Below, piece by piece: positions 3,358-48,909 of a stretch of DNA of 64,000 bases. The DNA is taken from contig DCXN01000003.1 in assembly GCA_002327685.1 (NCBI GenBank), positions 6,981-70,980 on the forward strand, given 5' to 3'. This DNA comes from Patescibacteria group bacterium UBA2135 (GTDB taxonomy: Bacteria > Patescibacteriota > Minisyncoccia > Phycocordibacterales > UBA2135). The notes beneath the pieces were generated by a model, which searched no databases, was not told the origin of the DNA, and was given only the letters and a program-made list of their open reading frames with translations. Both the position numbers and the translations under genes were made by a program. Position 1 is the first letter of the stretch. Each line of letters opens with the position of its first letter.

Positions 3358-3426
3358 CCGCCGCAAGGCCCGGCCTTACATGGGGATAACCTGTGCATAA
3401 ACCACCCCGCAAGGCCGGGCCTTGCG
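3358..3426. repeat. REP-like element, family 1 (copy 3)
   Basis: CCGCCGCAAGGCCCGGCCTTACATGGGGATAACCTGTGCATAAACCACCCCGCAAGGCCGGGCCTTGCG. Confidence 0.8.
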
Positions 3427-3499
3427 TAAGCTCCTCGCATGCCACACACAAAAAGCCCCTACAAAAGGGACTTTCCGCTCAAACCACTCAAAAAAACAA

Positions 3500-3940: not shown

Positions 3941-3945
3941 GTTAC

Positions 3946-4027
3946 TAGGCTCTAGATTTTAGGCTCTAGGCTCTAGGAAAGAATCCGTGTTCCGTCCTAA
4001 AGCCTAATGCCTAATGCCTAATGCCTT
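3946..4027. repeat. Short tandem repeats in the rplJ-rplL spacer
   Basis: GGCTCTAG x3 followed by GCCTAATG x3. Confidence 0.5.
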
Positions 4028-4036
4028 TGTTAATTA

Positions 4037-4558
4037 TTAATTCTTCGCCTCCGCGACCTGGTGCAACACACTCACAAACGACTGCGTCATCCCATTTAAC
4101 ACCTGAACAGTCTGCTGAACAGGCGCGTTTATAACCATAACAAATTGCCCAAGAAGAACTTCTCGAGAAGGTATCTTCGCAAGAGCAACAACCTCTTCTT
4201 TCCTCAAATACCTTTTTTCAAGAATACCACCCACAGCCGATACCGCATTTTCAAATTTCTTCTGAAATTCCGCGATACCCTTTGCCGGCAAAACCATATC
4301 CTCACCATAAGCAAGCGCAATTTCTCCCTCAAGCTCCGGCAAATCCCCTTCCATCTCAGCATCTTGAAGTACTCGCTTAAGCAATGTTTTCTTCACTACA
4401 ACATACGAAACCCCCTCCTTACGAAGCGCGCTCCGCATTTCACTTGCGTCAGTTACAGACAACCCATGAAAATTAACAAACACAACAGAGTTCGCATTCT
4501 CCACTACATCAGCAGCCTGTTTGACGATTTCTTCTTTTTTCTGTTTTGTTAAAGCCAT
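4037..4558 (-). CDS. rplJ: 50S ribosomal protein L10
   Basis: MALTKQKKEEIVK...VVFVNFHGLSV...LKR signature of L10. Immediately upstream of rplL. Confidence 0.9.
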   Translation of the reverse strand: MALTKQKKEEIVKQAADVVENANSVVFVNFHGLSVTDASEMRSALRKEGVSYVVVKKTLLKRVLQDAEMEGDLPELEGEIALAYGEDMVLPAKGIAEFQKKFENAVSAVGGILEKRYLRKEEVVALAKIPSREVLLGQFVMVINAPVQQTVQVLNGMTQSFVSVLHQVAEAKN

Positions 4559-4586
4559 GATAGATTTTTAACGAGCGCAGCGAGTA

Positions 4587-4900
4587 TAAAAATCATCACC
4601 CCCTCACTCGAAAATTAATTGGAAATGCTTCTTTTTATTCTCCTCTTTAAACTAATAAGAGCCCCCGCTCTTCGCTTAATTTGCCGTTCTCTTTCACGAG
4701 CATCCTGTTCTGATTTATACGCTTCATAATACACAACATCAAATGGCTTTCTATTTTCTGTTGATGACACATTTCCATTATTATGTTCTTTCACTCTTTT
4801 CTGTAAATCACTGGTATATCCAAAATATAAATCTTTATCTTTCAATGATTGTAATGTGTAGAAAAAGAACATAATAATTAATTTTCGAGTGATGGGGGTT
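4587..4900. mobile_element. Small element bounded by 24-bp terminal inverted repeats and carrying a GIY-YIG nuclease gene
   Basis: Left end CACCCCCTCACTCGAAAATTAATT (4587-4610). Right end AATTAATTTTCGAGTGATGGGGGTT (4876-4900). The same inverted repeats bound the non-coding element at 26880-27034. Confidence 0.55.
4615..4872 (-). CDS. GIY-YIG nuclease superfamily protein
   Basis: FFFYTLQSLKDKDLYFGYTSDLQKRVKEHN matches the GIY-x10-YIG...R...E...N pattern. 85 aa. Confidence 0.7.
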   Translation of the reverse strand: MFFFYTLQSLKDKDLYFGYTSDLQKRVKEHNNGNVSSTENRKPFDVVYYEAYKSEQDARERERQIKRRAGALISLKRRIKRSISN

Positions 4901-7272: not shown

Positions 7273-7341
7273 CGCCGCAAGGCCCGGCCTTACATGGGGA
7301 TAACTTGTTGATAAACTGCCCCGTAAGGCCGGGCCTTGCGG
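7273..7341. repeat. REP-like element, family 1 (copy 5)
   Basis: CCGCCGCAAGGCCCGGCCTTACATGGGGATAACTTGTTGATAAACTGCCCCGTAAGGCCGGGCCTTGCGG. Confidence 0.8.
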
Positions 7342-7378
7342 AAACAAAAACACGACCGAACCTTTTGGGTTCGATCGT
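7342..7378 (-). terminator. Rho-independent terminator for the 7401-7823 gene
   Basis: ACGACCGAACC-TTTT-GGGTTCGATCGT hairpin with a T-run on the minus strand. Confidence 0.55.
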
Positions 7379-10395: not shown

Positions 10396-10575
10396 CGAAC
10401 GGGAAAGGTCTGACCTTGAGGAAAAAACTGTGTCGCCAGGTCTGGCCTTGAGGAGGAGCGGAGCGACGGGAGAAGACCAGACCTTGCGGTACAGTTTTTG
10501 GGAAAAGGTCGGACCTCGCGGAGTCCATTTGCCGAACTGAGGAGTTTCAGCCCGAGACTGATCCGCCTCAGGCGG
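10396..10575. repeat. Family-2 GC-rich repeat array
   Basis: Units such as GGTCTGACCTTGAGG / CCAGGTCTGGCCTTGAGGAGGAGCGGAGCGACGGGAGAAG / ACCAGACCTTGCGG / GGTCGGACCTCGCGG. The core resembles the family-1 arm (CCGCAAGGYCCGGCCTT). Confidence 0.75.
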
Positions 10576-14129: not shown

Positions 14130-14199
14130 CCGCCGCAAGGCCCGGCCTTACATGGGGATAAGCTGTTGATAAACTACTCCATAAGGCCGGGCCTTGCGG
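14130..14199. repeat. REP-like element, family 1 (copy 7)
   Basis: CCGCCGCAAGGCCCGGCCTTACATGGGGATAAGCTGTTGATAAACTACTCCATAAGGCCGGGCCTTGCGG. Confidence 0.8.
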
Positions 14200-14285
14200 A
14201 CAAATGAATTTTTACCAAAACAAAAAAGACCGCCCCCTCGCATACGAAGCGAGGGTTTGGTCTCTCGTTTCGCCGAAGTGGCGGT

Positions 14286-16891: not shown

Positions 16892-16957
16892 ATGTTTGAA
16901 AATTACGCTTAATTACATCATTGTGTTTAATTACATGATTCTATCTTACAAGCACCA

Positions 16958-17031
16958 CCCCCGCAAGGCCCGGCCTTGCAAGTTATCCACAGGTTATCCC
17001 CCAAAAACCTCTCTCAAGGCCGGGCCTTGCA
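16958..17031. repeat. REP-like element, family 1, inverted variant (copy 9)
   Basis: CCCCGCAAGGCCCGGCCTTGCAAGTTATCCACAGGTTATCCCC...CAAGGCCGGGCCTTGC. The central part is the reverse complement of GGGGATAACCTGTGGATAA. Confidence 0.7.
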
Positions 17032-17116
17032 GAAAATCATCCACTCAAAAACCGCCTCACTTATTAGCAAGGCGGTTTTTAATGATTTGCTTTATCTTCG
17101 TATTAGCTTCTTTTCT

Positions 17117-20869: not shown

Positions 20870-20909
20870 ATTATACCTAACAAATTGATTTACGCAACAC
20901 TCATACTCA

Positions 20910-20950
20910 CCCCGCAAGGCCCGGCCTTACATGGGGATAACCTGTGGATA
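20910..20950. repeat. REP-like element, family 1 (copy 10, left arm plus centre only)
   Basis: CCCCGCAAGGCCCGGCCTTACATGGGGATAACCTGTGGATAG. Confidence 0.65.
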
Positions 20951-26879: not shown

Positions 26880-27034
26880 CCCCCCTCACTCGAAAAATTA
26901 TTGACGACGTAGAGCGAGGTAAATGGACGGGAAAGGTCTGACCTTGAGGAGGAGCGAAGCGACGGGAGAAGGTCGGACCTTGCGGAGTCCATTTGCCGAG
27001 CCGAGGAGTTAGTAACTTTTCGAGTGAGGGGGTG
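26880..27034. mobile_element. Non-coding MITE-like element with the same inverted repeats as the GIY-YIG element, carrying a family-2 repeat core
   Basis: Inverted repeats CCCCCTCACTCGAAAA (26881-26896) and TTTTCGAGTGAGGGGG (27017-27032) enclose GACGGGAAAGGTCTGACCTTGAGGAGGAGCGAAGCGACGGGAGAAGGTCGGACCTTGCGGAGTCCATTTGCCGAGCCGAGGAG. Confidence 0.55.
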
Positions 27035-27072
27035 CTCAAAAATTATAGTCGCTCCGCTCCTTAATTTTTAGC

Positions 27073-29355: not shown

Positions 29356-29432
29356 TATCTGGTATTTAGTATTTAGTATACGATTAAATTTTTTTATACT
29401 AGATACTAGATACTAAATACTTGATACCCATG
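29341..29432. repeat. AT-rich inverted-repeat region built from ATACTAAATAC / GTATTTAGTAT units
   Basis: GTATTTAGTAT x3 followed by ATACTAGATACTAGATACTAAATAC. The same unit family occurs at 33781-33875. Confidence 0.5.
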
Positions 29433-29786: not shown

Positions 29787-29789
29787 ATT

Positions 29790-29900
29790 TTTAATTTCGA
29801 ATTTCGAATAAATTTTAAATGAATGAATGTTTCAAAATTAGTACATTCGAATTTGATTCAAAATTCAAAATTAGAAATTCGAAATTAAATGTTAGAGTAA
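29790..29900. promoter_or_regulatory. AT-rich inverted repeat upstream of recA
   Basis: TTAATTTCGAATTTCGAAT ... AGAAATTCGAAATTAAAT arms about 70 nt apart. Confidence 0.35.
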
Positions 29901-29925
29901 TTATATTAATTTATATCCCATATTT

Positions 29926-30942: not shown

Positions 30943-31070
30943 AGCCAGGTCTAGCCTTGAGGAAAAAACTGTACGGCCAGGTCTGACCTTGAGGAGGAGC
31001 GGAGCAACGGGAGAAGGTCGGACCTTGCGGTATAGTTTTCGGAAGAAGACCAGACCTTACGGACCTTGTC
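30943..31070. repeat. Family-2 GC-rich repeat array
   Basis: CCAGGTCTAGCCTTGAGGAAAAAACTGTACGGCCAGGTCTGACCTTGAGGAGGAGCGGAGCAACGGGAGAAGGTCGGACCTTGCGG...GACCAGACCTTACGGACCTTG. Confidence 0.75.
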
Positions 31071-31230: not shown

Positions 31231-33078
31231 CTAATCCCCTATTGAAAGATTAGGATATTTGGTACGCAGGTCATCTCTTTCCGACAAAATGAGACCACTA
31301 AGATGAACGTTGCCGTCTACACGTTTTGGTAATTTAAGACCTTCGGATGATGTTAAGCCACTAAGATGAAGATTGCCGCTTACATTTTCGGGCAACTTAA
31401 GACCTTCAGATGATATTAAGCCATCAAGATTAAGACCACCGTCCATATGCTCGGGAAAATTGAGGTCTTTAGCTGACGTTAATCTTTCGAGATTAAGGCC
31501 GTCGCCTATATATTCGGGAAGATTGAGGCCTTTGATTGAGGTTAATCTGTTGAGAACCAGATGCCCACCTACATATCCGGGTAGCTTAAGACCTTCGACT
31601 GATGTTAATCTGAAGAAGTCAAGGTTGCCACCTACACGATTAGGTAATTTGAGCCCTTCGAACGAGGTTAAGTTATTGAGATAAAGGTTGCCACCTATAT
31701 ATTCAGGTAATTCAAGACCTTTAGTTGACGTTACGTCTTTGAGGTCTAAATGACCAAGGTGAAAAAGTATGCCACCTTGTAGAGCTTCTTCTTTGGTTAT
31801 ACTTACCTTATCTTTTGGCACATCAAATGCGAAAGATAAATCTTCTTTAACGTCTCTTTGATTTTGTATCTCTTTAATACGCGAGTCTCGTTGATGACCG
31901 AATCCTTCAATCTTAGAATCAATTTCGTAAAGAAATTTTATGTCGTCTTTTGAAAGTTCTTCGCCAGCCCGCCCTGAGTCTTGTCGAAGGGTTTTTCTCT
32001 CAATCTCGGTAAGCCGCTTCATGTCAGAAGTCTTCTTTTTGTATTGCTCTCCGTCAGGGAATTCCTGGAGTTTTTCTTCCACCACAGGAGCAATGTTTGA
32101 ATCAAGGTTTTGCTGTTCAGCTATGCCACGGACTTCTGCGATTTTGCCTTGTTGCATACGAATAGCAGCTCTCGGAATTATTGGTTTCCCATCTTCGTCG
32201 TATGAATAATATACATAAAAGTCACCTCCTTTAAGTTGTGTTTCCGCGGTTGACTCTCCCGCGGTACACCATCCTGTACCATGTCCTTGGAGAGAATGTA
32301 CCAATGGCATATGGTCTGAATTTCTGTCATATTTTATCCATTTTCCTTCTGTTCCGATTAGTTGTTCTTTTGACGCAGGTGTAATGCTTTCTATCGCGAA
32401 AGCATAGAGTTTGGAGAAGTTTTCGCCCTGGAGGAGTTCGTTAAATTTTTTCTGCTTTTCTTCATCAAACAAATACACGTCTAAATCTTCTCCCTTTGCT
32501 TTCTCTTCTATAGAATCAAGGACATAAGCCAAAGCTTCTCTGTTTAAGTCTGGGAATGGTTTTACAGTACCTTTTGTTCGCTTGGTGAATGATTTTTTCT
32601 CTTTGTCGTATTCACCCATTCCAAGCATACTTCGAAATGCGTAGTACTTTAACCAATCGGGGTATGTGGCATCTTTTGATGACAGATAGTCAGTCCATAC
32701 ATCCATGGAGCTTTTTTGGTCTGTGATGATAACTTCTGTCGCCTGCTCGCGAAGTTCTCCGCTAATCTCTACATCGCCGTGTCCTTGTTCACGCGCTATT
32801 CTCTGTTGAGCATCAAAATAGCTTTCGGATATTTCATCTTCCTTTATGACAAACTTGTCATAAAGCACCTTTTTCAGAGCTCGCATGCCGCGTTCGCGTT
32901 TTTCGGGATCTTCACGTTCAATAATCTCCTTAAAGCGATTAAGGTAGTTTTGTATCTGCTCTGTTGGTTTTTGTGGCACACGCTCACCCGTGATGGTTTC
33001 CGCACGCCTTGTAGCAGATTTCACCTCCGGTTTATTATGTAAATCGTATTTTTTCTTTAGAAATTCAGGATTTTCCAT
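31231..33078 (-). CDS. Leucine-rich-repeat protein (unknown N-terminal domain plus ~8 C-terminal LRR-like 23-24-aa repeats)
   Basis: Repeats LKLPxxVGGNLxLxxLTSxEG at the C-terminus. 615 aa. Confidence 0.55.
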   Translation of the reverse strand: MENPEFLKKKYDLHNKPEVKSATRRAETITGERVPQKPTEQIQNYLNRFKEIIEREDPEKRERGMRALKKVLYDKFVIKEDEISESYFDAQQRIAREQGHGDVEISGELREQATEVIITDQKSSMDVWTDYLSSKDATYPDWLKYYAFRSMLGMGEYDKEKKSFTKRTKGTVKPFPDLNREALAYVLDSIEEKAKGEDLDVYLFDEEKQKKFNELLQGENFSKLYAFAIESITPASKEQLIGTEGKWIKYDRNSDHMPLVHSLQGHGTGWCTAGESTAETQLKGGDFYVYYSYDEDGKPIIPRAAIRMQQGKIAEVRGIAEQQNLDSNIAPVVEEKLQEFPDGEQYKKKTSDMKRLTEIERKTLRQDSGRAGEELSKDDIKFLYEIDSKIEGFGHQRDSRIKEIQNQRDVKEDLSFAFDVPKDKVSITKEEALQGGILFHLGHLDLKDVTSTKGLELPEYIGGNLYLNNLTSFEGLKLPNRVGGNLDFFRLTSVEGLKLPGYVGGHLVLNRLTSIKGLNLPEYIGDGLNLERLTSAKDLNFPEHMDGGLNLDGLISSEGLKLPENVSGNLHLSGLTSSEGLKLPKRVDGNVHLSGLILSERDDLRTKYPNLSIGD

Positions 33079-33429: not shown

Positions 33430-33765
33430 CTACACAGGCATAAATGCTTCGGTTGTAATTTTTCGTCTCTGAATAATATCTCGTGCTAGAAGCGCAGTAA
33501 ATGCGATCATACCGAGTACAAGTATTTGCGTCATTACTTCAGTATTCAAAACCGCAGACTCAAGAAATGTAAAACTTCCCGTAAGTCCCCCGTCAAGATT
33601 CCAATTAGCAATGACATGTTTAATTGAAACATATGAAGTAATCTGCCATCCCAAGAGAACAATCAACACAGCTTTTATTGAAAGTGGATTAAATACATGC
33701 CTTAGAAACCACAGAAGATATATTCTCCGCATAATATATGCTTTGTTTTGTTCAGGTGTTTTCAT
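33430..33765 (-). CDS. Membrane protein, possibly the anti-sigma partner of the upstream ECF sigma factor
   Basis: 111 aa with transmembrane segments, immediately downstream of the sigma factor gene on the same strand. The function is inferred from position only. Confidence 0.4.
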   Translation of the reverse strand: MKTPEQNKAYIMRRIYLLWFLRHVFNPLSIKAVLIVLLGWQITSYVSIKHVIANWNLDGGLTGSFTFLESAVLNTEVMTQILVLGMIAFTALLARDIIQRRKITTEAFMPV

Positions 33766-33780
33766 TTTTAAATCAAAGTA

Positions 33781-33875
33781 TCTCGTATCTAGTATCTCGT
33801 ATTTTGTATAAAAACTAAAAAAAATTAACCGTATATACCATACTAAATACTAAATACCAGATACTAAATACTTTC
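33781..33875. repeat. AT-rich ATACTAAATAC-type repeat region
   Basis: ATCTCGTATCTAGTATCTCGTA...ATACTAAATACTAAATACCAGATACTAAATAC. Confidence 0.5.
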
Positions 33876-33876
33876 G

Positions 33877-34434
33877 TTAATTGTTAATTTTACTATTTAC
33901 TTTTTTAAACTCTCGCTTTGCGCGATAAATGCGTGTTTTTACCGCAGATATGGAAATGCCTTCAAGTGCGGCAATTTCTTTCTGTGGCATGCCATCAAGA
34001 AAATGAAGTTTTAACGCCCTACCCAACTGTTTAGGCATTCTCGTCAAAACAGAAGCTACAAAATCATATGTTTCAACATCCTCTACTTTGTCGGGAAATG
34101 CTTCATATACTTCCTTTTCAACCCGTAATAACGCGCCATCACTTTTCTTTAACTTCTGATAGTGTGAAAAGGTTGTGTTCAATAGTATTTTATATCCCCA
34201 TGATTTGAATGAAGCGCCCTGCTGAATTTTAAACCGGCCCGCATTTACATAAATTTTTACAAATGTTTCTTGCACAATATCATCAACTTCTTCCCGAGGA
34301 CCCAATATCCCACGCACCTTATTAAGAAACGGTGTTTGATAACGTTCAATCAACACCTCAAATACTGCCGGTTTTTTTACCGACAGAAAAAGAATCTCCT
34401 CATCACTTTTATCATGAAGTTCTTCGTGTTTCAT
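33877..34434 (-). CDS. RNA polymerase sigma factor, ECF (sigma-70 family)
   Basis: Region 2 (...DIVQETFVKIY...) and region 4 HTH (LDGMPQKEIAALEGISISAVKTRIYRAKREF). Start placed at the internal Met at 34434. Confidence 0.75.
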   Translation of the reverse strand: MKHEELHDKSDEEILFLSVKKPAVFEVLIERYQTPFLNKVRGILGPREEVDDIVQETFVKIYVNAGRFKIQQGASFKSWGYKILLNTTFSHYQKLKKSDGALLRVEKEVYEAFPDKVEDVETYDFVASVLTRMPKQLGRALKLHFLDGMPQKEIAALEGISISAVKTRIYRAKREFKKVNSKINN

Positions 34435-34444
34435 ACCTTTAATA

Positions 34445-34534
34445 CCTACAACATACAACTAACAACCTACAACTTAAAACCGATTGTGTTGATTGCTAGT
34501 CACCAGTTGTTAGTTGTTAGTTGTATGTTGTTGG
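34445..34534. promoter_or_regulatory. Long hairpin (29-bp arms) between rpsR and the sigma factor gene
   Basis: CCTACAACATACAACTAACAACCTACAAC ... GTTGTTAGTTGTTAGTTGTATGTTGTTGG. Confidence 0.5.
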
Positions 34535-34723
34535 TTATTTTGAGACATACGGCAAAAAACCCATAAAACGAGCTCGTTTCACCGCTTCAGAAATTTTTCT
34601 CTGATTGCGAGCGCTCACTTTTGTATATTTCTTTGAGACAATGCGAGCATGCAAATTAATATACTTTTTCAGCGTCTCAGTGTCCTTATAGTCTATATAT
34701 TTTAAGTTTGTGGCGTTATTCAT
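34535..34723 (-). CDS. rpsR: 30S ribosomal protein S18
   Basis: ...YIDYKDTETLKKYI...ARNQRKISEAVKRARFMGFLPY. Start taken at the internal ATG, which has a GGAGCGAAGGAAC RBS. Confidence 0.8.
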   Translation of the reverse strand: MNNATNLKYIDYKDTETLKKYINLHARIVSKKYTKVSARNQRKISEAVKRARFMGFLPYVSK

Positions 34724-34738
34724 GTTCCTTCGCTCCAC

Positions 34739-34873
34739 TCAGTCAAATTAAAAATGTAAAGCTCAAAACGAAAAATGACGGAGTAAAATGTAAAAATTAG
34801 AAAAATTTTAAAATTGTGGTATTTTGAATTTTAAATTGTAGTTTTGATTTTTGATTCTTGCACTTTGAGTTTA
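34739..34873 (-). promoter_or_regulatory. Duplicated ~130-bp leader (copy upstream of rpsR)
   Basis: About 90% identical to 35363-35489. Ends with GAGTGGAGCGAAGGAAC-ATG. Confidence 0.5.
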
Positions 34874-35347
34874 CTAGAACGGTATATCCCCTGGTTTAAT
34901 ATCTTCTTCCGGATATTCAATCGTGTCAAGCTCTTCTTTTTTTTCACCAACTGACTGCGTCTGTCCGGCGGAATCTTTTTGCGAAGACTGGGTCGGTGCC
35001 ATACCACCACCTCCCCCACTTGACCTTGGACCAAATTGCACGCGATCTGCCACAATTTCGGTACGATATTTCTTTTCCCCATCCTGTCCATCCCAACTTC
35101 TGTTTTGTATTCGTCCTTCAATTAAAGCAGAGCTTCCTTTGCGCAAATACTGTGAAACAGTTTCAGCTTGCCGTCCAAATACAACTACATTATGAAAATC
35201 AACACTTTCTTGCTGTTTACCGTCTTTGTCTTTCCAGACACGATTAGTTGCAATAGAAAAATTGGTAACAGGTGTACCTGATGGAAGTGATTTCAATTCA
35301 GGATCACGCGTAAGATTTCCAAATATGAATGCTTTGTTTAGATACAT
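34874..35347 (-). CDS. ssb: Single-stranded DNA-binding protein
   Basis: OB-fold (LNKAFIFGNLTRDPELK...), Gly-rich tail and C-terminal DIPF. Confidence 0.85.
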   Translation of the reverse strand: MYLNKAFIFGNLTRDPELKSLPSGTPVTNFSIATNRVWKDKDGKQQESVDFHNVVVFGRQAETVSQYLRKGSSALIEGRIQNRSWDGQDGEKKYRTEIVADRVQFGPRSSGGGGGMAPTQSSQKDSAGQTQSVGEKKEELDTIEYPEEDIKPGDIPF

Positions 35348-35362
35348 GTTCCTTCGCTCCAC

Positions 35363-35489
35363 TCAGTCAAATTAAAAATAAAAAACTCAAAACTAAAAAT
35401 GACAGAGTAAAGTGTAAAAATTAGAAAAATTTTAAAATTGCGGTATTTTGAATTTTAAATTGTAGTTTTGATTTTTGCGCTTTACGTTT
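35363..35489 (-). promoter_or_regulatory. Duplicated ~130-bp leader (copy upstream of ssb)
   Basis: About 90% identical to 34739-34873. Confidence 0.5.
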
Positions 35490-35996
35490 TTAGTTTCCTA
35501 CAAGTTCTTCAATCGTCTTATCAAGTTCTTCTTCCGAAAGCTGTTTTCCAGGCTTCTGCACCTTTTGCTCTTTTGTTATGCGGCCTGTTGGCTGTTTCGG
35601 TTTAAGAAACGTCATCTTCTTTACTGATGGCAGCTTCTCGCGAGCTATTTTCACTAAAATAAATCGCAATATATGTTTATTATGCTTTAATTCTTTGTCA
35701 AATTCAAGAAGATCTTTTGGAGACATCTGAAATTTAATCCAACCAAAAAGCGCGGTATCAAAATACTTTCGCTTTTGACCCATAATTTTAGACATAGAGT
35801 ACGCAAGAGACATAACTCTAGGCATCTGATCAGAGACCATAGCACCGCTATGTTTTTCAATACCGTCCTTAAGAACCCCCACTTCCTGTGGAATTTCTTC
35901 TTCAGAAAGTGTTGGCAATAGATGATAACCGAGCTCGTATAAGCGCGGTTCTTTGTCGTCTATATTCTCTTGTAATTCTATATCAACTTCTGTCAT
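35490..35996 (-). CDS. rpsF: 30S ribosomal protein S6 with a C-terminal extension
   Basis: YELGYHLLPTLSEEE... S6-like N-terminus. Position is the conserved rpsF-ssb-rpsR order. Confidence 0.65.
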   Translation of the reverse strand: MTEVDIELQENIDDKEPRLYELGYHLLPTLSEEEIPQEVGVLKDGIEKHSGAMVSDQMPRVMSLAYSMSKIMGQKRKYFDTALFGWIKFQMSPKDLLEFDKELKHNKHILRFILVKIAREKLPSVKKMTFLKPKQPTGRITKEQKVQKPGKQLSEEELDKTIEELVGN

Positions 35997-36087
35997 GTGA
36001 AAGAATGGTAACAGAAGGATTATTAAAAGTCAAAACCCGTTCTACGCGAGATCAAAAACGGCGGGCATAATGCCCGCCGTATATACG

Positions 36088-37491
36088 CTACTTTTTCATC
36101 TCAATAGCAACAAATCTAGGCCCAAATTCACTTTCAACGTACAACAACACATCCGTACGCCCAGCTGTACGCAGTTCATCAAGCACACGCAAAACATCAA
36201 CAACATCAGTGACACTCTGATTTTGAATCTTTGAGATGATATCTCCAAACTTCACGCCCTTTTGCTCAGCAGGACTACCTTTTTCAACTGCAATAACCAC
36301 TACACCCTGTTCATTAATATTATATACCTCACGCAATAACGGAGTAACAAGTGAAAGCGTAACACCTAATTGTGGAATTTTTTGCCCTTTAACAACCTGC
36401 GAATCTTCTTCTTTCTCAGAAGAATCGTCCTCAACCTTACCTATGGTAACAAAAACTTTCTTTTCTTCTGACTCGCGCCACACAGTGACAACGACTTTGC
36501 TGTTGGGTTGAATATTCGCAATCATATGAACCAACATGCGCTTTTCAGAAATTTTTTTCTCGCCCACAAAAAGAATTATATCACCCATCTTGATTCCTGC
36601 CTTGTGAGCTGGACCACCCTCAATCACATGTGTAACGATAACGCTAAACGCTTCTTTATTAAAGCCAAATGCCTTAGCTATTCCTAGAGTTATTGTCTGA
36701 AGATGAACACCAAGCCATCCTCGGCGTACTTCTCCATGTTGAATCAGTTGCTCAACAACAGATTGCGCTATTGAACTAGGGATCGCAAATCCGATACCGA
36801 TATTGACACCGGTTAGTGAAAAATGACCTGAGACAATACCAATGACTTTGCCAAAAATATTAAACATCGGGCCACCCGAATTCCCCTTATTAATGGCCGC
36901 ATCAGTTTGAATAAAACCAACGAAGGAACTGTTACTAAGTTTGCGACCGAGTGCCGAAATAATACCCCAGCTCATTGTGTCAACAAAATCAAGCGGACTG
37001 CCAATTACAATAATCAAATCTCCAACCCGAGCTGTATCAGAATTACCAAACCTCACAAACGGTAATTCTTTTTCTGAATTAATCTTCAAAACAGCAAGGT
37101 CTGTCATTGGATCATGTCCAACAAGTTTTGCATCAAATTCTGCACCATCTAGCAGAACAACAACAATTTCCAAAGCATCTCTAATGACATGAACGTTGGT
37201 CACCACATAGCCATCACTACTGATAATAAATCCTGAACCGGAACTTCTTTGTTTGTGTTTCGGAGCTTGCTTTGGTACAGGAAGATCAGGGACATCGGAA
37301 GGAACTTCGACCCGCTTCACTAAAACACGAACCACAGCAGGACGAACTTTTTCTGCCAAGTCAGCTAAATCAGTTAAGCCAACAGGGTTAACTAGCGTAT
37401 CTTTGGTATATATAAAACAAGCAAAAACAATTGCTAAAGAAAGACATACTGATACCAATACAGTAATTACAGGCACAAGATATCGTTTCAT
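36088..37491 (-). CDS. htrA: HtrA/DegP-family serine protease with two PDZ domains
   Basis: Trypsin-like domain with GNSGGPMFN, then two PDZ domains. N-terminal transmembrane segment. Confidence 0.85.
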   Translation of the reverse strand: MKRYLVPVITVLVSVCLSLAIVFACFIYTKDTLVNPVGLTDLADLAEKVRPAVVRVLVKRVEVPSDVPDLPVPKQAPKHKQRSSGSGFIISSDGYVVTNVHVIRDALEIVVVLLDGAEFDAKLVGHDPMTDLAVLKINSEKELPFVRFGNSDTARVGDLIIVIGSPLDFVDTMSWGIISALGRKLSNSSFVGFIQTDAAINKGNSGGPMFNIFGKVIGIVSGHFSLTGVNIGIGFAIPSSIAQSVVEQLIQHGEVRRGWLGVHLQTITLGIAKAFGFNKEAFSVIVTHVIEGGPAHKAGIKMGDIILFVGEKKISEKRMLVHMIANIQPNSKVVVTVWRESEEKKVFVTIGKVEDDSSEKEEDSQVVKGQKIPQLGVTLSLVTPLLREVYNINEQGVVVIAVEKGSPAEQKGVKFGDIISKIQNQSVTDVVDVLRVLDELRTAGRTDVLLYVESEFGPRFVAIEMKK

Positions 37492-45594: not shown

Positions 45595-45744
45595 ACGCAG
45601 TTTTAATGCACACATCGGCGAGGCTCGCCTCTTAGGCGGCCCGCCTTTTGGCAAGTGAAACTATTTTTGATAATTTATCCATAAATTGCTTACAACTTTC
45701 AACTGTTTCTATGGCGAAAATTAAATCATCACGGTTTCGTTGTT

Positions 45745-45882
45745 CGTCATAGGTCGTAGGTCGTTCGTTGTAGGTCGTTCGTTGTAGGTTGTTTGTCGTA
45801 GGTCGTTCGTTGTAGGTCGTTCGTTGTAGGTTGTTTGTTGTAGGTTGTTTGTTGTAGGTTGTTTGTTGTAGGTTGTTTGTTA
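45745..45882. repeat. Tandem repeat, 14-bp period x ~10
   Basis: (C/T)GTTGTAGGT(C/T)GTT repeated. Lies between the 45880-47808 gene stop and the glyQS start. Confidence 0.8.
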
Positions 45883-47808
45883 CTCGTCTTTAGGCAACAC
45901 TACCTTCCCCTGACTAAAAATAAAGTTCGGGTCAGTGCTAAGCGAAGTATCAAGCGCCTTACTTGAAAGACGCGCGACTGTCTCTGTAAACTCATCAACT
46001 CCTGAAAACGTTGACTCACCAATTACCGTCGGAGTCTGGTTGAGATGCGACAAGCTTGGCATAAGTTTTACCTGAAATGCAACCTCTCGCGGCGGCAATG
46101 TCATACCCGACCCCGCCTCAAGCCGATCAATGTTCCATACCACTTCGCGAGACGATTCATTGTATGAAATATTTTCACTCATTGGCGTAAAAACTCCCAC
46201 CCATTTAACATAAGGAGGTAAAACTGCTTTGACCATTGAGCGAGAGACATGATTTGACGAATTAACAGCCGTAAAAACAACTGTGTATGTTGTTTCGCGC
46301 TCAACTTCCGGCGGTACAGGACCTGTGTTTATAAACGGTCCAACAAAATATACCATACGAGACGTAAATACAACATCAGAGGCAATTTTAATCGTACGCT
46401 CAATTGAATTTTCAACTCGCTCATCAACGCCTGACTCCGAAAGTCGCTTACCACTTGTAGTTACAACAATATCAACAGTTGGATTTTTAAATAGTGAACC
46501 GCTTGTGGTAAAAAGCGGCTGCAACGCAAACCGAAAACTTGTTCTTCCCTGCGCGCCAGACTCAATGTCCGCAAGATCCGGCAGTGAATTCTTATCCCAC
46601 AAAATCGTGTTATCAGCTGAATCAAAGAATCCATTACGCGGCTTCACTGAAAGTTCATTAATAACATCACCTGAAAGCTTTGCTTCAATGCGCGCGTCAA
46701 CAATTTTGGTCGGCAAGTTATTTGTCCATACGACCTCAACGTCAACAAGCGAGCCGCTTCCCACAGCTGGTTCTTTTCTTGTTTCTCCATTGACAAACAA
46801 AAGCGTACTCAAGAAAGGGCGCGCAATTGAAATAGTAGATATTGATGTATTGTATGTAACCCCGAGTTCATTTTCTTTCTCTTTGGATTTAGCGCCGCTT
46901 GAAACCCGGAATACTTTCTCTTCCCCATCTTGCCCTTCAAGAATTCCGCGAACAACAATCACGCGCCGTGCCCGCGGCGCCAAATCACCAATAAGCCATT
47001 TGTTATCGCCAGATACGGCCTGCGGCTCAGCCCCAAGAAATGAAAAACCAAACGGATAGTCTATCTCGACAGCAAGATCACGAGTTATTATGTCGGTATT
47101 TGATATGACTGTAGCTTTAATTTCAAATTCCTGCCCTGCCACCGCTTCAGAAAGTGTCTCTACGGTAAGGCTGGTAGCAGAAGAGCTGATATGTATTTCA
47201 TGTTCTTTTTCTTTTACAAAAATGGCATTAGAATCTTCTACTCTATACTCAAGTGTAATATTAAATTTCTTTTCATCTCCTTCTTGTCCAAACAATACAA
47301 GCCGCAAAGGTTCTTCAATAACCTCCCCTGCTTCAATACGATCAAGCGATTTACGAAAGTTGGAAAGTTCTGTTTTAAGTTTGCCAACACTTCTTGTTCC
47401 TTGCGGATATTCAACCAAAAAATCAACAAATTCAAGAGGGACACTATTGTTATTTTCAATTACAATTTGGAGTTGCACTTCTTCACCCGCGGGCGCCGCA
47501 ACAGGGCCTGAAACAAGAATGTCCACATTTTTTGTGGAGATAACATTAGAATCACGCAGCAAAACAAATGAAGCAACAATCATCGCAAGAACAAAAAAGA
47601 GTATTGAGATAATGAAAAATTTTTTCCAGAATGGCATGATTGGTTTTTTTGCGTCCGCAGGATCCGCTTCTTCGGCTTCCCACCCGCTTTCACCCTCCCC
47701 GTCATGTGTATGAAGCTCAAAGCGTTCACTTGGAGGCAAATTCGCGCCACGCCTATACAAAGACTTTTTAAGCCGCTCTATCTTCCCCTCTTTTTTCACC
47801 TTAGACAT
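45880..47808 (-). CDS. Membrane-anchored large hypothetical protein with repeated beta-rich domains
   Basis: 642 aa. N-terminal transmembrane segment after a charged cytoplasmic head. Extracellular Ig-like repeats. Confidence 0.6.
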   Translation of the reverse strand: MSKVKKEGKIERLKKSLYRRGANLPPSERFELHTHDGEGESGWEAEEADPADAKKPIMPFWKKFFIISILFFVLAMIVASFVLLRDSNVISTKNVDILVSGPVAAPAGEEVQLQIVIENNNSVPLEFVDFLVEYPQGTRSVGKLKTELSNFRKSLDRIEAGEVIEEPLRLVLFGQEGDEKKFNITLEYRVEDSNAIFVKEKEHEIHISSSATSLTVETLSEAVAGQEFEIKATVISNTDIITRDLAVEIDYPFGFSFLGAEPQAVSGDNKWLIGDLAPRARRVIVVRGILEGQDGEEKVFRVSSGAKSKEKENELGVTYNTSISTISIARPFLSTLLFVNGETRKEPAVGSGSLVDVEVVWTNNLPTKIVDARIEAKLSGDVINELSVKPRNGFFDSADNTILWDKNSLPDLADIESGAQGRTSFRFALQPLFTTSGSLFKNPTVDIVVTTSGKRLSESGVDERVENSIERTIKIASDVVFTSRMVYFVGPFINTGPVPPEVERETTYTVVFTAVNSSNHVSRSMVKAVLPPYVKWVGVFTPMSENISYNESSREVVWNIDRLEAGSGMTLPPREVAFQVKLMPSLSHLNQTPTVIGESTFSGVDEFTETVARLSSKALDTSLSTDPNFIFSQGKVVLPKDE

Positions 47809-47862
47809 TACACTTCATTATAGCATTGAATAAGCAAGGTACTAGGTTTTAAGCTAATCGCG

Positions 47863-48053
47863 CCGCCAGGTCTGGCCTTGAGGAGGAGCGGAGCCGAGTC
47901 TGACTCGGCGCAGCGACGGGAAAAGGCCGGACCTTGCGGAACGGTTTTTTCTAATTTGCAGACCTTGAGAAAAAAACTGTGCAGCCAGGTCTGGCCTTGA
48001 GGAGGAGCGAAGCGACGGGAAAAGGCCGGACCTTGCGGAACAGTTTTCCGCAG
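47863..48053. repeat. Family-2 GC-rich repeat array (two large units)
   Basis: CCAGGTCTGGCCTTGAGGAGGAGCG(G/A)AGC...GACGGGAAAAGGCCGGACCTTGCGGAAC(G/A)GTTTT x2, one unit with an inserted CCGAGTCTGACTCGG hairpin. Confidence 0.8.
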
Positions 48054-48150
48054 TTTCCCCCCATTCCATCAGAACCTTGCAAGGTTTTGATAGAATGTTA
48101 ACAATTTAGGCAAAATTCCCCTCAATTTTATATGAATACAGCAATTTTTA

Positions 48151-48844: not shown

Positions 48845-48909
48845 AAAATTATTATAACGCTGAATACTTAATATATTGAATAAATATAGTACCTCGTGCT
48901 AGCTCTAAG

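Follow-up and report, generated by a model that had tools for sequence, protein, structure and literature searches.

Both spacers flanking ssb in a Patescibacteria rpsF-ssb-rpsR cluster are probably copies of a dispersed, AT-rich, imperfectly palindromic intercistronic repeat

The rpsF-ssb-rpsR cluster of Patescibacteria group bacterium UBA2135 carries nearly the same AT-rich sequence twice, once between rpsF and ssb and again between ssb and rpsR. We call this repeat family B, and we use the window for the whole 64,000-nt stretch of contig DCXN01000003.1 in which it was analyzed. A preliminary description of the locus noted a duplicated leader of about 130 bp before ssb and rpsR and offered two readings, an autoregulatory element bound by SSB or S18 and a propagated intergenic module. 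In our assessment both spacers are probably copies of a dispersed, imperfectly palindromic intercistronic repeat comparable to REP, ERIC, or MITE sequences rather than a leader specific to ssb and rpsR. It is thus the propagated module that gained support, as one part of a much larger set of cassettes.

Positions 35348-35477 and 34724-34853 align over 130 nt without a gap and with 123 identities (94.6%, 7 mismatches; BLAST E ~1e-55 within the window), which exceeds the roughly 90% first reported. Lower similarity carries the match to 162 nt at 89%, with a gradual decay at the 5′ edge. The two copies (Table 1) are direct repeats 624 bp apart, and no further family B copy is present in the window. 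Both spacers have 25-26% GC against 41.7% for the window, in agreement with the AT-richness noted earlier. Pfam assigns the three genes to S6, SSB, and S18, as had been described; all lie on the minus strand. The spacers had been delimited as 35363-35489 and 34739-34873 from open reading frames (ORFs) extended to a GTG; with the genuine ATG starts, their limits become those of Table 1. The MERRNM N-terminal extension of both predicted proteins comes from this in-frame GTG, which lies within the tail common to both repeats, and was rightly called an ORF-calling artifact because orthologous ssb and rpsR genes of relatives begin at ATG (MYLNKA... and MNN..., respectively).

Read on the mRNA strand, family B has five parts: A-rich 7-nt words that start at the upstream stop codon, a 24-nt core (AAAACTACAATTTAAAATTCAAAA), a tip hairpin, a T-rich arm, and a purine-rich tail. 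The palindromic segments of the preliminary description are found in both copies as AATTTTAAAATT, which forms the tip hairpin. The tail (GACTGAGTGGAGCGAAGGAAC) has GGAG at -13 to -10 and AAGGAA at -7 to -2 in addition to the in-frame GTG. It is identical before the two ATG codons, so the common start context that had been reported stands. The ribosome-binding site reported with it is uncertain in its role, and we regard the tail as a plausible but not an established site of this kind.

The repeat pair is not an assembly artifact, because long contigs and independent records give the same gene order and the differences between the copies are invariant across the records compared. We counted 8-9 blocks of long (50-200 kb) contigs with these proteins, and four independent records agree on rpsF-R-ssb-R-rpsR, where R is the repeat; two of these are ENA assemblies, and the rest are partial contigs of the NCBI metagenome-assembled genome (MAG). 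Since repeats break assemblies, contigs end at the copies in shorter assemblies, including the public MAG GCA_002688065.1, which break within the repeats; one contig of 590 nt consists of ssb with a repeat stub at each end. No contig with ssb deleted or amplified through its flanking direct repeats was found among the assemblies examined.

A search for additional copies of the spacer, as had been proposed, located family B in another operon. A third close copy of 143 nt fills the rpsE-to-rplO spacer in two records: contig NZBX01000006.1 of the same MAG (L082) and an independent contig of 85 kb (L083) from the Joint Genome Institute (JGI). Its identity is 93% with copy 1 and 95% with copy 2, and its end reads ...GACTGAGTGAAGCGAAGGAAC ATG, with a single G-to-A change in the tail (GAAG for GGAG) in both records. 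A diverged fourth member, 122 nt long and without the tail, lies between rplC and rplD. Because each close copy brings its own tail, ssb, rpsR, and rplO look nearly alike just before their start codons. A scan for the tail GACTGAGTGGAGCGAAGGAAC gave 0 matches in a genome-contig collection that lacks the source genome. At the variable sites of the three close copies, copies 2 and 3 have four states in common, copies 1 and 3 two, and copies 1 and 2 two, and these incompatible groupings suggest exchange between copies. Two short contigs from different assemblies (L073 and L074) run from the 3′ end of rpsE through a hybrid element into rpsR. The hybrid has the left part of copy 3 and the right part of copy 2 and switches within a 58-nt identical block (compare L082 10655-10797 with window 34724-34873); it is either a repeat-mediated rearrangement or recombinant in a strain or an assembly chimera.

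The orthologous spacers of relatives lack family B and are unrelated or very short. In L009, whose S6 is 86% identical, the rpsF/ssb spacer is 78 nt with a palindrome of family A and the ssb/rpsR spacer roughly 90 nt with one of family E (these families are described below). The rpsF/ssb genes are separated by 18 nt in L011 (S6 83% identical) and by 37 nt in L012 (S6 64% identical). The sister lineage L085, whose S5 protein is 94% identical and whose gene nucleotides are about 85% identical to those of L082, has a 52-nt family C palindrome between rpsE and rplO and no family B in 20 kb. Because the spacers of the nearest relatives are quite different, family B is lineage-specific and recent as judged from these sequence comparisons. 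The preliminary description had allowed that relatives might have unrelated spacers and that the repeat might be a local duplication only; the first is what we found, while the third copy on another contig speaks against the second. A purely local tandem or segmental duplication, or gene conversion between the spacers around ssb with no dispersal, would fit the spacing and direct orientation of the window copies and the gradual decay of their similarity at the 5′ edge. As a complete explanation it is contradicted by the third copy, which sits in another operon and contig in two independent assemblies, and other cassette families are dispersed likewise (for example, seven family A copies in one operon). 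We therefore hold a local event alone to be highly improbable, although it may have been the source of one window copy.

The autoregulatory reading takes the spacers as a duplicated cis-regulatory leader at which SSB, or the S6:S18 complex, would repress translation of the two downstream genes; it draws on the identical sequence upstream of the two genes and on how common leader autoregulation is in ribosomal protein operons. A known S6:S18-binding leader belongs to this same operon, rpsF-ssb-rpsR, and its description presents it as a conserved structured RNA in the rpsF 5′ untranslated region, with the binding motif upstream of rpsF in many phyla (PMC3854524). Compared with the leader as presented there, family B lies downstream rather than upstream of rpsF, is unconserved in relatives, has no Rfam model, and also precedes rplO (PMC3854524). 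Rfam 15 yielded no match in the whole window at the gathering score, ribosomal leaders included, and nothing overlapping either spacer in 33500-36500 even at E ≤ 10. RNA folding, which had been suggested as a check, gave no stable mRNA structure: the mRNA strands of the two spacers were no better than dinucleotide shuffles (z = 0.06 and 0.72). Folding of the two copies in either sense singled out the antisense strand of copy 1 alone (z = -2.7), with -32.3 kcal/mol against -14.4 for its mRNA strand; the corresponding values for copy 2 were -17.4 and -6.6 kcal/mol. The antisense strand pairs better via G-U pairs because the arms differ by C/T changes. Folded together as mRNA, the four copies gave a consensus structure of only -8 kcal/mol with one compensatory pair, and family B is the least structured cassette family as mRNA. 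In addition, the same element stands before rplO, which encodes L15 and is not connected with SSB or S18. The element is therefore not an SSB- or S18-specific operator, which contradicts the autoregulatory reading, and with the orthologous spacers of the closest relatives lacking the element we find that reading barely credible. A terminator scan found no intrinsic terminator (GC-rich stem plus T run) in either spacer. As to a promoter cassette, each copy has only a weak 9/12 match to sigma-70-type hexamers (TTAAAA-18-TAAAAT), and such sites occur in the region at chance frequency (8 against a shuffle expectation of 7.0).

Family B is one of several cassette families in the ribosomal protein operons. 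In the S10-spc operon of L082, most of the wider stop-to-start gaps hold one imperfect palindrome of 50-150 nt made of 7- or 9-nt words, in which a run of words is followed by a short loop and the complementary words. We distinguish family A (TAGCTTCAC... / ...AAGCTAACG; seven spacers of the L082 operon), family B itself, family C (TAGGCAC / CCTAATT), family D (CCGAATA words), and family E (AAGATTTA words). Of the 28 spacers folded, 14 of 64-159 nt from L082 and 14 of 47-93 nt from L085, nearly all form one hairpin, with energies of -7 to -51 kcal/mol (most about -17 to -51). The hairpin starts -3 to +9 nt from the stop codon, which it often includes, and ends -2 to +19 nt from the ATG. L085 has a hairpin at most junctions too, often of a different family than in L082. 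Some junctions that hold a cassette in one lineage have none in the other: S19 and L22 overlap as TAATG in L082 and are separated by an 85-nt cassette in L085; L29 and S17 overlap as ATGA in L082 and are separated in L085 by a 47-nt cassette whose first words encode the L29 C-terminus; and L4 and L23 are 4 nt apart in L085 with a hairpin of about 90 nt between them in L082. Such pairs of filled and empty orthologous junctions are best read as signatures of inserted DNA with turnover. Because cassette words encode the C-terminal residues of both L29 and L4 (for example, ...KIAS* from AAGATAGCTTCTTAG; L085 6230-6345 and 2065-2135, L082 1660-1830), inserts have in part become coding sequence. The rplB-to-rpsS junction of L082 (3177-4073) contains an 897-nt insert with a 128-aa antisense ORF, several hairpins, and an apparent new promoter region, and the same junction in L085 is 474 nt. 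The 128-aa ORF was considered as a candidate mobilizing gene and set aside, as it has no Pfam match.

The filling of junctions extends to the window itself, where all four spacers of the rpsF-ssb-rpsR-sigma-ORF111 cluster are occupied by cassettes. Besides the two non-B palindromes of this cluster (Table 1), word-palindromes lie between co-directional genes at 3941-4036, 29356-29429, and 29787-29925; the five are built from GGCATTAGGC, GTATTTAGTAT, AATTTCG, and ACAACTA words, which are families of the S10-spc operon of the same genome. A tandem array of about 13 copies of a 14-nt unit (GGTCGTTCGTTGTA and variants) at 45722-45903 takes up most of the spacer between two minus-strand genes, and its words resemble the arms of the 34435-34534 hairpin.

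In the mechanism we propose, the cassettes would be DNA inserts that come and go, and pass from one junction to another, within short evolutionary times. The distribution of copies points to spread by a transposition-like or gene-conversion-like process. Selection is the simplest explanation for the stop-to-start placement: with the rest of these operons being coding, presumably only insertions at junctions survive, and an insert there would be tolerated provided that it leaves the upstream gene a stop and the downstream gene a working start. Each family B copy extends from one gene's stop codon to the ATG of the next and brings its own purine-rich tail (GGAG...AAGGAA), which would supply the working start context. 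On the mRNA it would form a long, weakly structured, AU-rich leader with a Shine-Dalgarno-like tail for initiation at the downstream cistron.

Several points weigh against this proposal of dispersal by insertion. We found no transposase, terminal inverted repeats, or target-site duplications, so the argument for mobility comes from the copy distribution only. The copy count covers only about 85 kb of the genome, and two of the three close copies are near enough to each other that local copying may explain one. The ribosome-binding role of the tail is put in doubt by the GAAG of the rplO copy and by the scarcity of Shine-Dalgarno-like motifs among window genes. Finally, a hairpin is kept at many junctions despite replacement of its sequence, and the cassettes may be functional rather than merely tolerated.

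This last point belongs to the main rival, which we judge unlikely, that the cassettes are functional punctuation of polycistronic mRNA: processing sites, 3′-end protection, or a means of keeping stop and start codons close for re-initiation. The REP hairpins in Escherichia coli operons and the 3′ inverted repeats of chloroplast mRNAs are the natural comparison. Hairpins occupy most wider junctions in both sister lineages even where the sequence differs, they start at or include the stop codon and end near the ATG, and with leaderless-looking first genes and rare Shine-Dalgarno motifs the internal cistrons may need special initiation. However, the antisense strand is slightly the more stable of the two in 20 of the 28 folded spacers (Wilcoxon p = 0.015), family B folds poorly as mRNA, and certain junctions lack a cassette in one lineage without any apparent effect.

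The 24-nt core of family B has a much wider distribution than the rest of the element. It occurs exactly in 7 JGI metagenome contigs of unrelated organisms, and with three Y positions allowed it occurs at 52 loci in GTDB species representatives, all of them MAGs, labeled as Patescibacteria, Omnitrophota, Atribacterota, Bacteroidota, Gammaproteobacteria, Planctomycetales, Dehalococcoidales, Ignavibacteria, and others; far less than one match is expected in random sequence. Many matches are found where a contig ends, and more than one copy occurs in several genomes. In the usual setting the core comes after three or four A-rich words, whose dialect differs from genome to genome, and is mostly followed by a complementary T-rich arm. 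We define these AAAACYACAATTYAAAATTYAAAA-core A-word/T-word palindromes as a family in this analysis and found no literature on it. The exact core preceded by 3-4 A-rich 7-nt words is seen in both window copies and in 61 instances in L013-L071. Its TGT-centered partner in the T-rich arm, defined for the family as CTGTCATTTT or TTGTRGTTTT, is CTGTCATTTT in copy 1 and CCGTCATTTT in copy 2, as in the Saccharibacteria loci L060 and L061, where the CTGTCATTTT motif of copy 1 also occurs; in other loci the partner is TTGTGGTTTT or similar. About 12 instances consist of the left half only, with no complementary arm. Where both flanking genes are present, 34 of 39 instances lie between co-directional genes, with the core antisense to the genes in 25 and sense, as in the window, in 9. 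The left arm is 19-48 nt from the gene boundary in most instances and 20 and 28 nt from it in the window. Six extra relaxed matches, outside the locus selection, were found in the same 367 kb and none in 50 local shuffles. Hairpins across this cross-phylum family were more stable on the transcribed strand in 22 cases against 14, which is not significant.

The presence of the core in so many lineages may reflect horizontal spread, a common recognition factor, or low-complexity convergence. Phage origin was rejected: the core pattern had no match in IMG/VR viral contigs and the spacer had no blastn match in INPHARED phages. In L016 (11632-11700), A-rich words and the 24-nt core lie inside a phosphoglycerate-kinase-like (pgk-like) ORF (...SSKLKVQNSKLQFKIQNLKV...), apparently as an in-frame occurrence in a variable loop. 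In L034, from the marine Parcubacteria ARS125, the core is immediately followed by TTGAC-GAGCGYAGCGA-GTCA and a second hairpin three times in 8 kb. One could also suppose that the element acts at the DNA level, as a protein-binding site or cruciform whose core is recognized by, for example, a nucleoid, replication, or uptake protein. The core is indeed conserved among many organisms despite variable arms, elements lie in either orientation to transcription, and the nontranscribed strand often folds better. Against such a role, neither a candidate protein nor a positional association with origins or other landmarks came to light, about 12 members are without a complementary arm, and the stop-to-start position suggests a constraint from expression; we think it extremely improbable. 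A broader speculation, also rather improbable in our estimation, is that the word-palindromes serve as punctuation of polycistronic mRNA in ultra-small, mostly non-Shine-Dalgarno bacteria, with family B as one widespread type whose core would be recognized by a conserved trans-acting factor or carried between phyla by some mobilization mechanism.

Table 1. Positions of the family B copies, their parts, and neighboring features in the window
Feature	Position	Strand	Remarks
rpsF (S6)	35490-35996	-	First gene of cluster; Pfam PF01250
ssb	34874-35347	-	Repeat copy on each side; Pfam PF00436, E = 6e-40
rpsR (S18)	34535-34723	-	Pfam PF01084
Family B copy 1	35348-35489	-	142 nt; whole spacer from rpsF stop to ssb ATG; identical in all assemblies that have it
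Core AAAACTACAATTTAAAATTCAAAA, copy 1	35446-35469	-	24 nt; A-rich 7-nt words 5′ of core, starting at rpsF stop
Tip hairpin AATTTTAAAATT, copy 1	35428-35439	-	Palindrome; pairs with AATTTAAAATT in core; stem in minimum-energy and centroid structures
T-rich right arm, copy 1 (TTTTTCTAATTTTTACACTTTACTCTGTCATTTTTAGTTTTGAGTTTTTTATTTTTAATTT)	35369-35427	-	Imperfect complement of A-rich left arm; internal inverted matches
3′ tail GACTGAGTGGAGCGAAGGAAC, copy 1	35348-35368	-	21 nt, purine-rich, unpaired; immediately 5′ of ssb ATG
Family B copy 2	34724-34873	-	150 nt; whole spacer from ssb stop to rpsR ATG
Core AAAACTACAATTTAAAATTCAAAA, copy 2	34822-34845	-	Same core as copy 1
Tip hairpin AATTTTAAAATT, copy 2	34804-34815	-	Palindrome; forms the tip hairpin
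T-rich right arm, copy 2	34745-34803	-	Imperfect complement of left arm
3′ tail GACTGAGTGGAGCGAAGGAAC, copy 2	34724-34744	-	Identical to tail of copy 1; immediately 5′ of rpsR ATG
Spacer rpsR to sigma factor	34435-34534	-	ACAACTA-word palindrome, other family; -40.5 kcal/mol
Spacer sigma factor to 111-aa ORF	33766-33876	-	GTATTTAGTAT-family word-palindrome, -32.2 kcal/mol; family also at 29356-29429
Promoter-like TTGACT-17-TACCAT	36005-36033	-	Ends 8 nt before rpsF ATG; consensus match only

The promoter-like sequence upstream of rpsF is likely the promoter of the operon, which would give a leaderless mRNA or a very short leader. The sole good intrinsic terminator of the scan also lies upstream of rpsF, at 36058-36080. 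TATAAT-like hexamers stand about 5-12 nt before the ATG of many first genes (for example, 20870-20885, 47809-47830, 48845-48865, and the 59588 region; compare 36005-36033), and a loose test detects a Shine-Dalgarno-like motif in 10 of 40 window genes; these two features therefore suggest that leaderless or near-leaderless mRNAs are frequent in the window.

The window holds other repeats as well. GC-rich, REP-like hairpins (CCGCAAGGCCCGGCCTTAC...GTAAGGCCGGGCCTTGCGG) occur in 7-13 copies in its first 21 kb (236-20950; for example, 236-323, 3361-3448, 7275-7362, 14133-14220, 16953-17041, and 20904-20950), with -85 to -95 kcal/mol in their host spacers and loops that contain the DnaA-box-like GGGGATAACCTGTGGATAAAC or TTATCCACA. 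The motif GAGCGNAGCGA is a recurrent loop of hairpins with differing stems (AGGTCTGACCTT..., TTTTTAAC...GTATAAAAA) at 10406-10522, 26934-27010, 30947-31063, 47868-48071, and 51557, and also at 1850-1893, 4555-4598, and about 27030-27072. Three small versions of it stand immediately 5′ of an ATG, and the family B tail (GGAGCGAAGGA) resembles the motif. Within an ORF at 31231-33078 (615 aa, no Pfam domain), six 63-nt repeats of 62-100% identity (31295-31735) encode a leucine-rich-repeat-like ...LTS.EGLKLP..V.GNL... motif.

For annotation, recognizing family B as a probable dispersed repeat disposes of an attractive but misleading reading, that of an autoregulatory leader for ribosomal protein genes or SSB, and accounts for the false N-terminal extensions here as well as for the points at which assemblies break. 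In wider terms, the operons of highest conservation and expression in a reduced marine Patescibacteria genome have one junction after another filled by palindromic cassettes that are prone to turnover. Should the cassettes matter for expression, they would represent a new organization of internal-cistron translation where Shine-Dalgarno sites are rare; if they are selfish, they would offer an unusually clean case of insertions filtered to the sole tolerated sites. The cross-phylum core poses a testable question of its own, between horizontal spread and a common recognition factor.

Several known repeat systems invite comparison with family B. ERIC sequences (or IRU; Enterobacteriaceae and Vibrio) are imperfect palindromes of ~127 bp in transcribed intergenic regions, in either orientation and in several to many copies; their sequence is conserved across genera, and filled and empty orthologous sites are known. 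Family B is likewise an imperfect palindrome of similar size found inside operons, in either orientation and in multiple copies. Compared by description, it is far more AT-rich than ERIC and has 7-nt words, an exact stop-to-start span, and a start-proximal purine tail. To our knowledge, ERIC sequences are neither built from 7-nt words nor exact in spanning stop to start, and we expect no sequence relationship between the two. Rickettsia palindromic elements (RPEs), of ~100-150 bp, insert in essential regions of a reduced genome and can become coding. The L29 and L4 C-termini made from cassette words and the core inside the pgk-like ORF of L016 are reminiscent of them, whereas RPEs typically lie in frame inside genes and the present cassettes lie at gene junctions. 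Miniature inverted-repeat transposable elements (MITEs) resemble family B in its dispersed copies (three close and one diverged, at four junctions), in the rpsF/ssb junction of only 18 nt in L011, and in the filled and empty sites of the cassette class between L082 and L085. Terminal inverted repeats were not found in family B, whose 3′ end is an unpaired purine tail, whose left end is variable A-rich words, and whose inverted repeats are internal. Nor is there a target-site duplication: the left flank is TAA, TAG, or TGA, the right flank is ATG, and no direct repeat occurs there. Filled-versus-empty comparisons of the other families gave no convincing one.

REP, BIME, and REPIN elements, mobilized by RAYT, are described in two sources as interspersed extragenic palindromes, often in inverted pairs, that can stabilize upstream mRNA (PMC2817692, PMC3116915). 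As presented there, they too are palindromes between genes of one operon without classical terminal inverted repeats or target duplications (PMC2817692, PMC3116915). By these accounts, REPs differ in being 20-40 nt, GC-rich, present in hundreds per genome, and tied to RAYT, against cassettes of 50-150 nt that are built from words and, in family B, AT-rich. Family B has 130-150 nt and 25-26% GC. The roughly 85 kb of genome covered contain 3-4 copies of it and showed no RAYT. Because terminal inverted repeats and a target duplication are missing and the size and composition are wrong for REP, we assign it to neither MITEs nor REPs. TIGR arrays have two alternating repeats of 8-12 nt with 9-nt spacers, in 5-15 units beside a Tas gene (PMC12045711). 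They were rejected as a match, as the spacers studied here are degenerate 7-nt words in a single palindrome with no array. Cyanobacterial STRR heptamers are grouped with heptamer repeats of the TAACTGA type. In the literature searched we found no description of intercistronic palindromes in Patescibacteria or Omnitrophota. The closest parallel is the TAACTGA heptamer, which marine Beggiatoaceae, Cyanobacteria, and Bacteroidetes carry in direct tandem repeats (PMC4679880). These resemble the cassettes as 7-nt-word arrays within a few nucleotides of start codons, including those of ribosomal protein operons, but have no complementary arm, whereas here degenerate words form palindromes with a nonrepetitive conserved core (PMC4679880). 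Family B is a member of no named family and in its behavior is most like ERIC, REP/BIME, RPEs, and MITEs.

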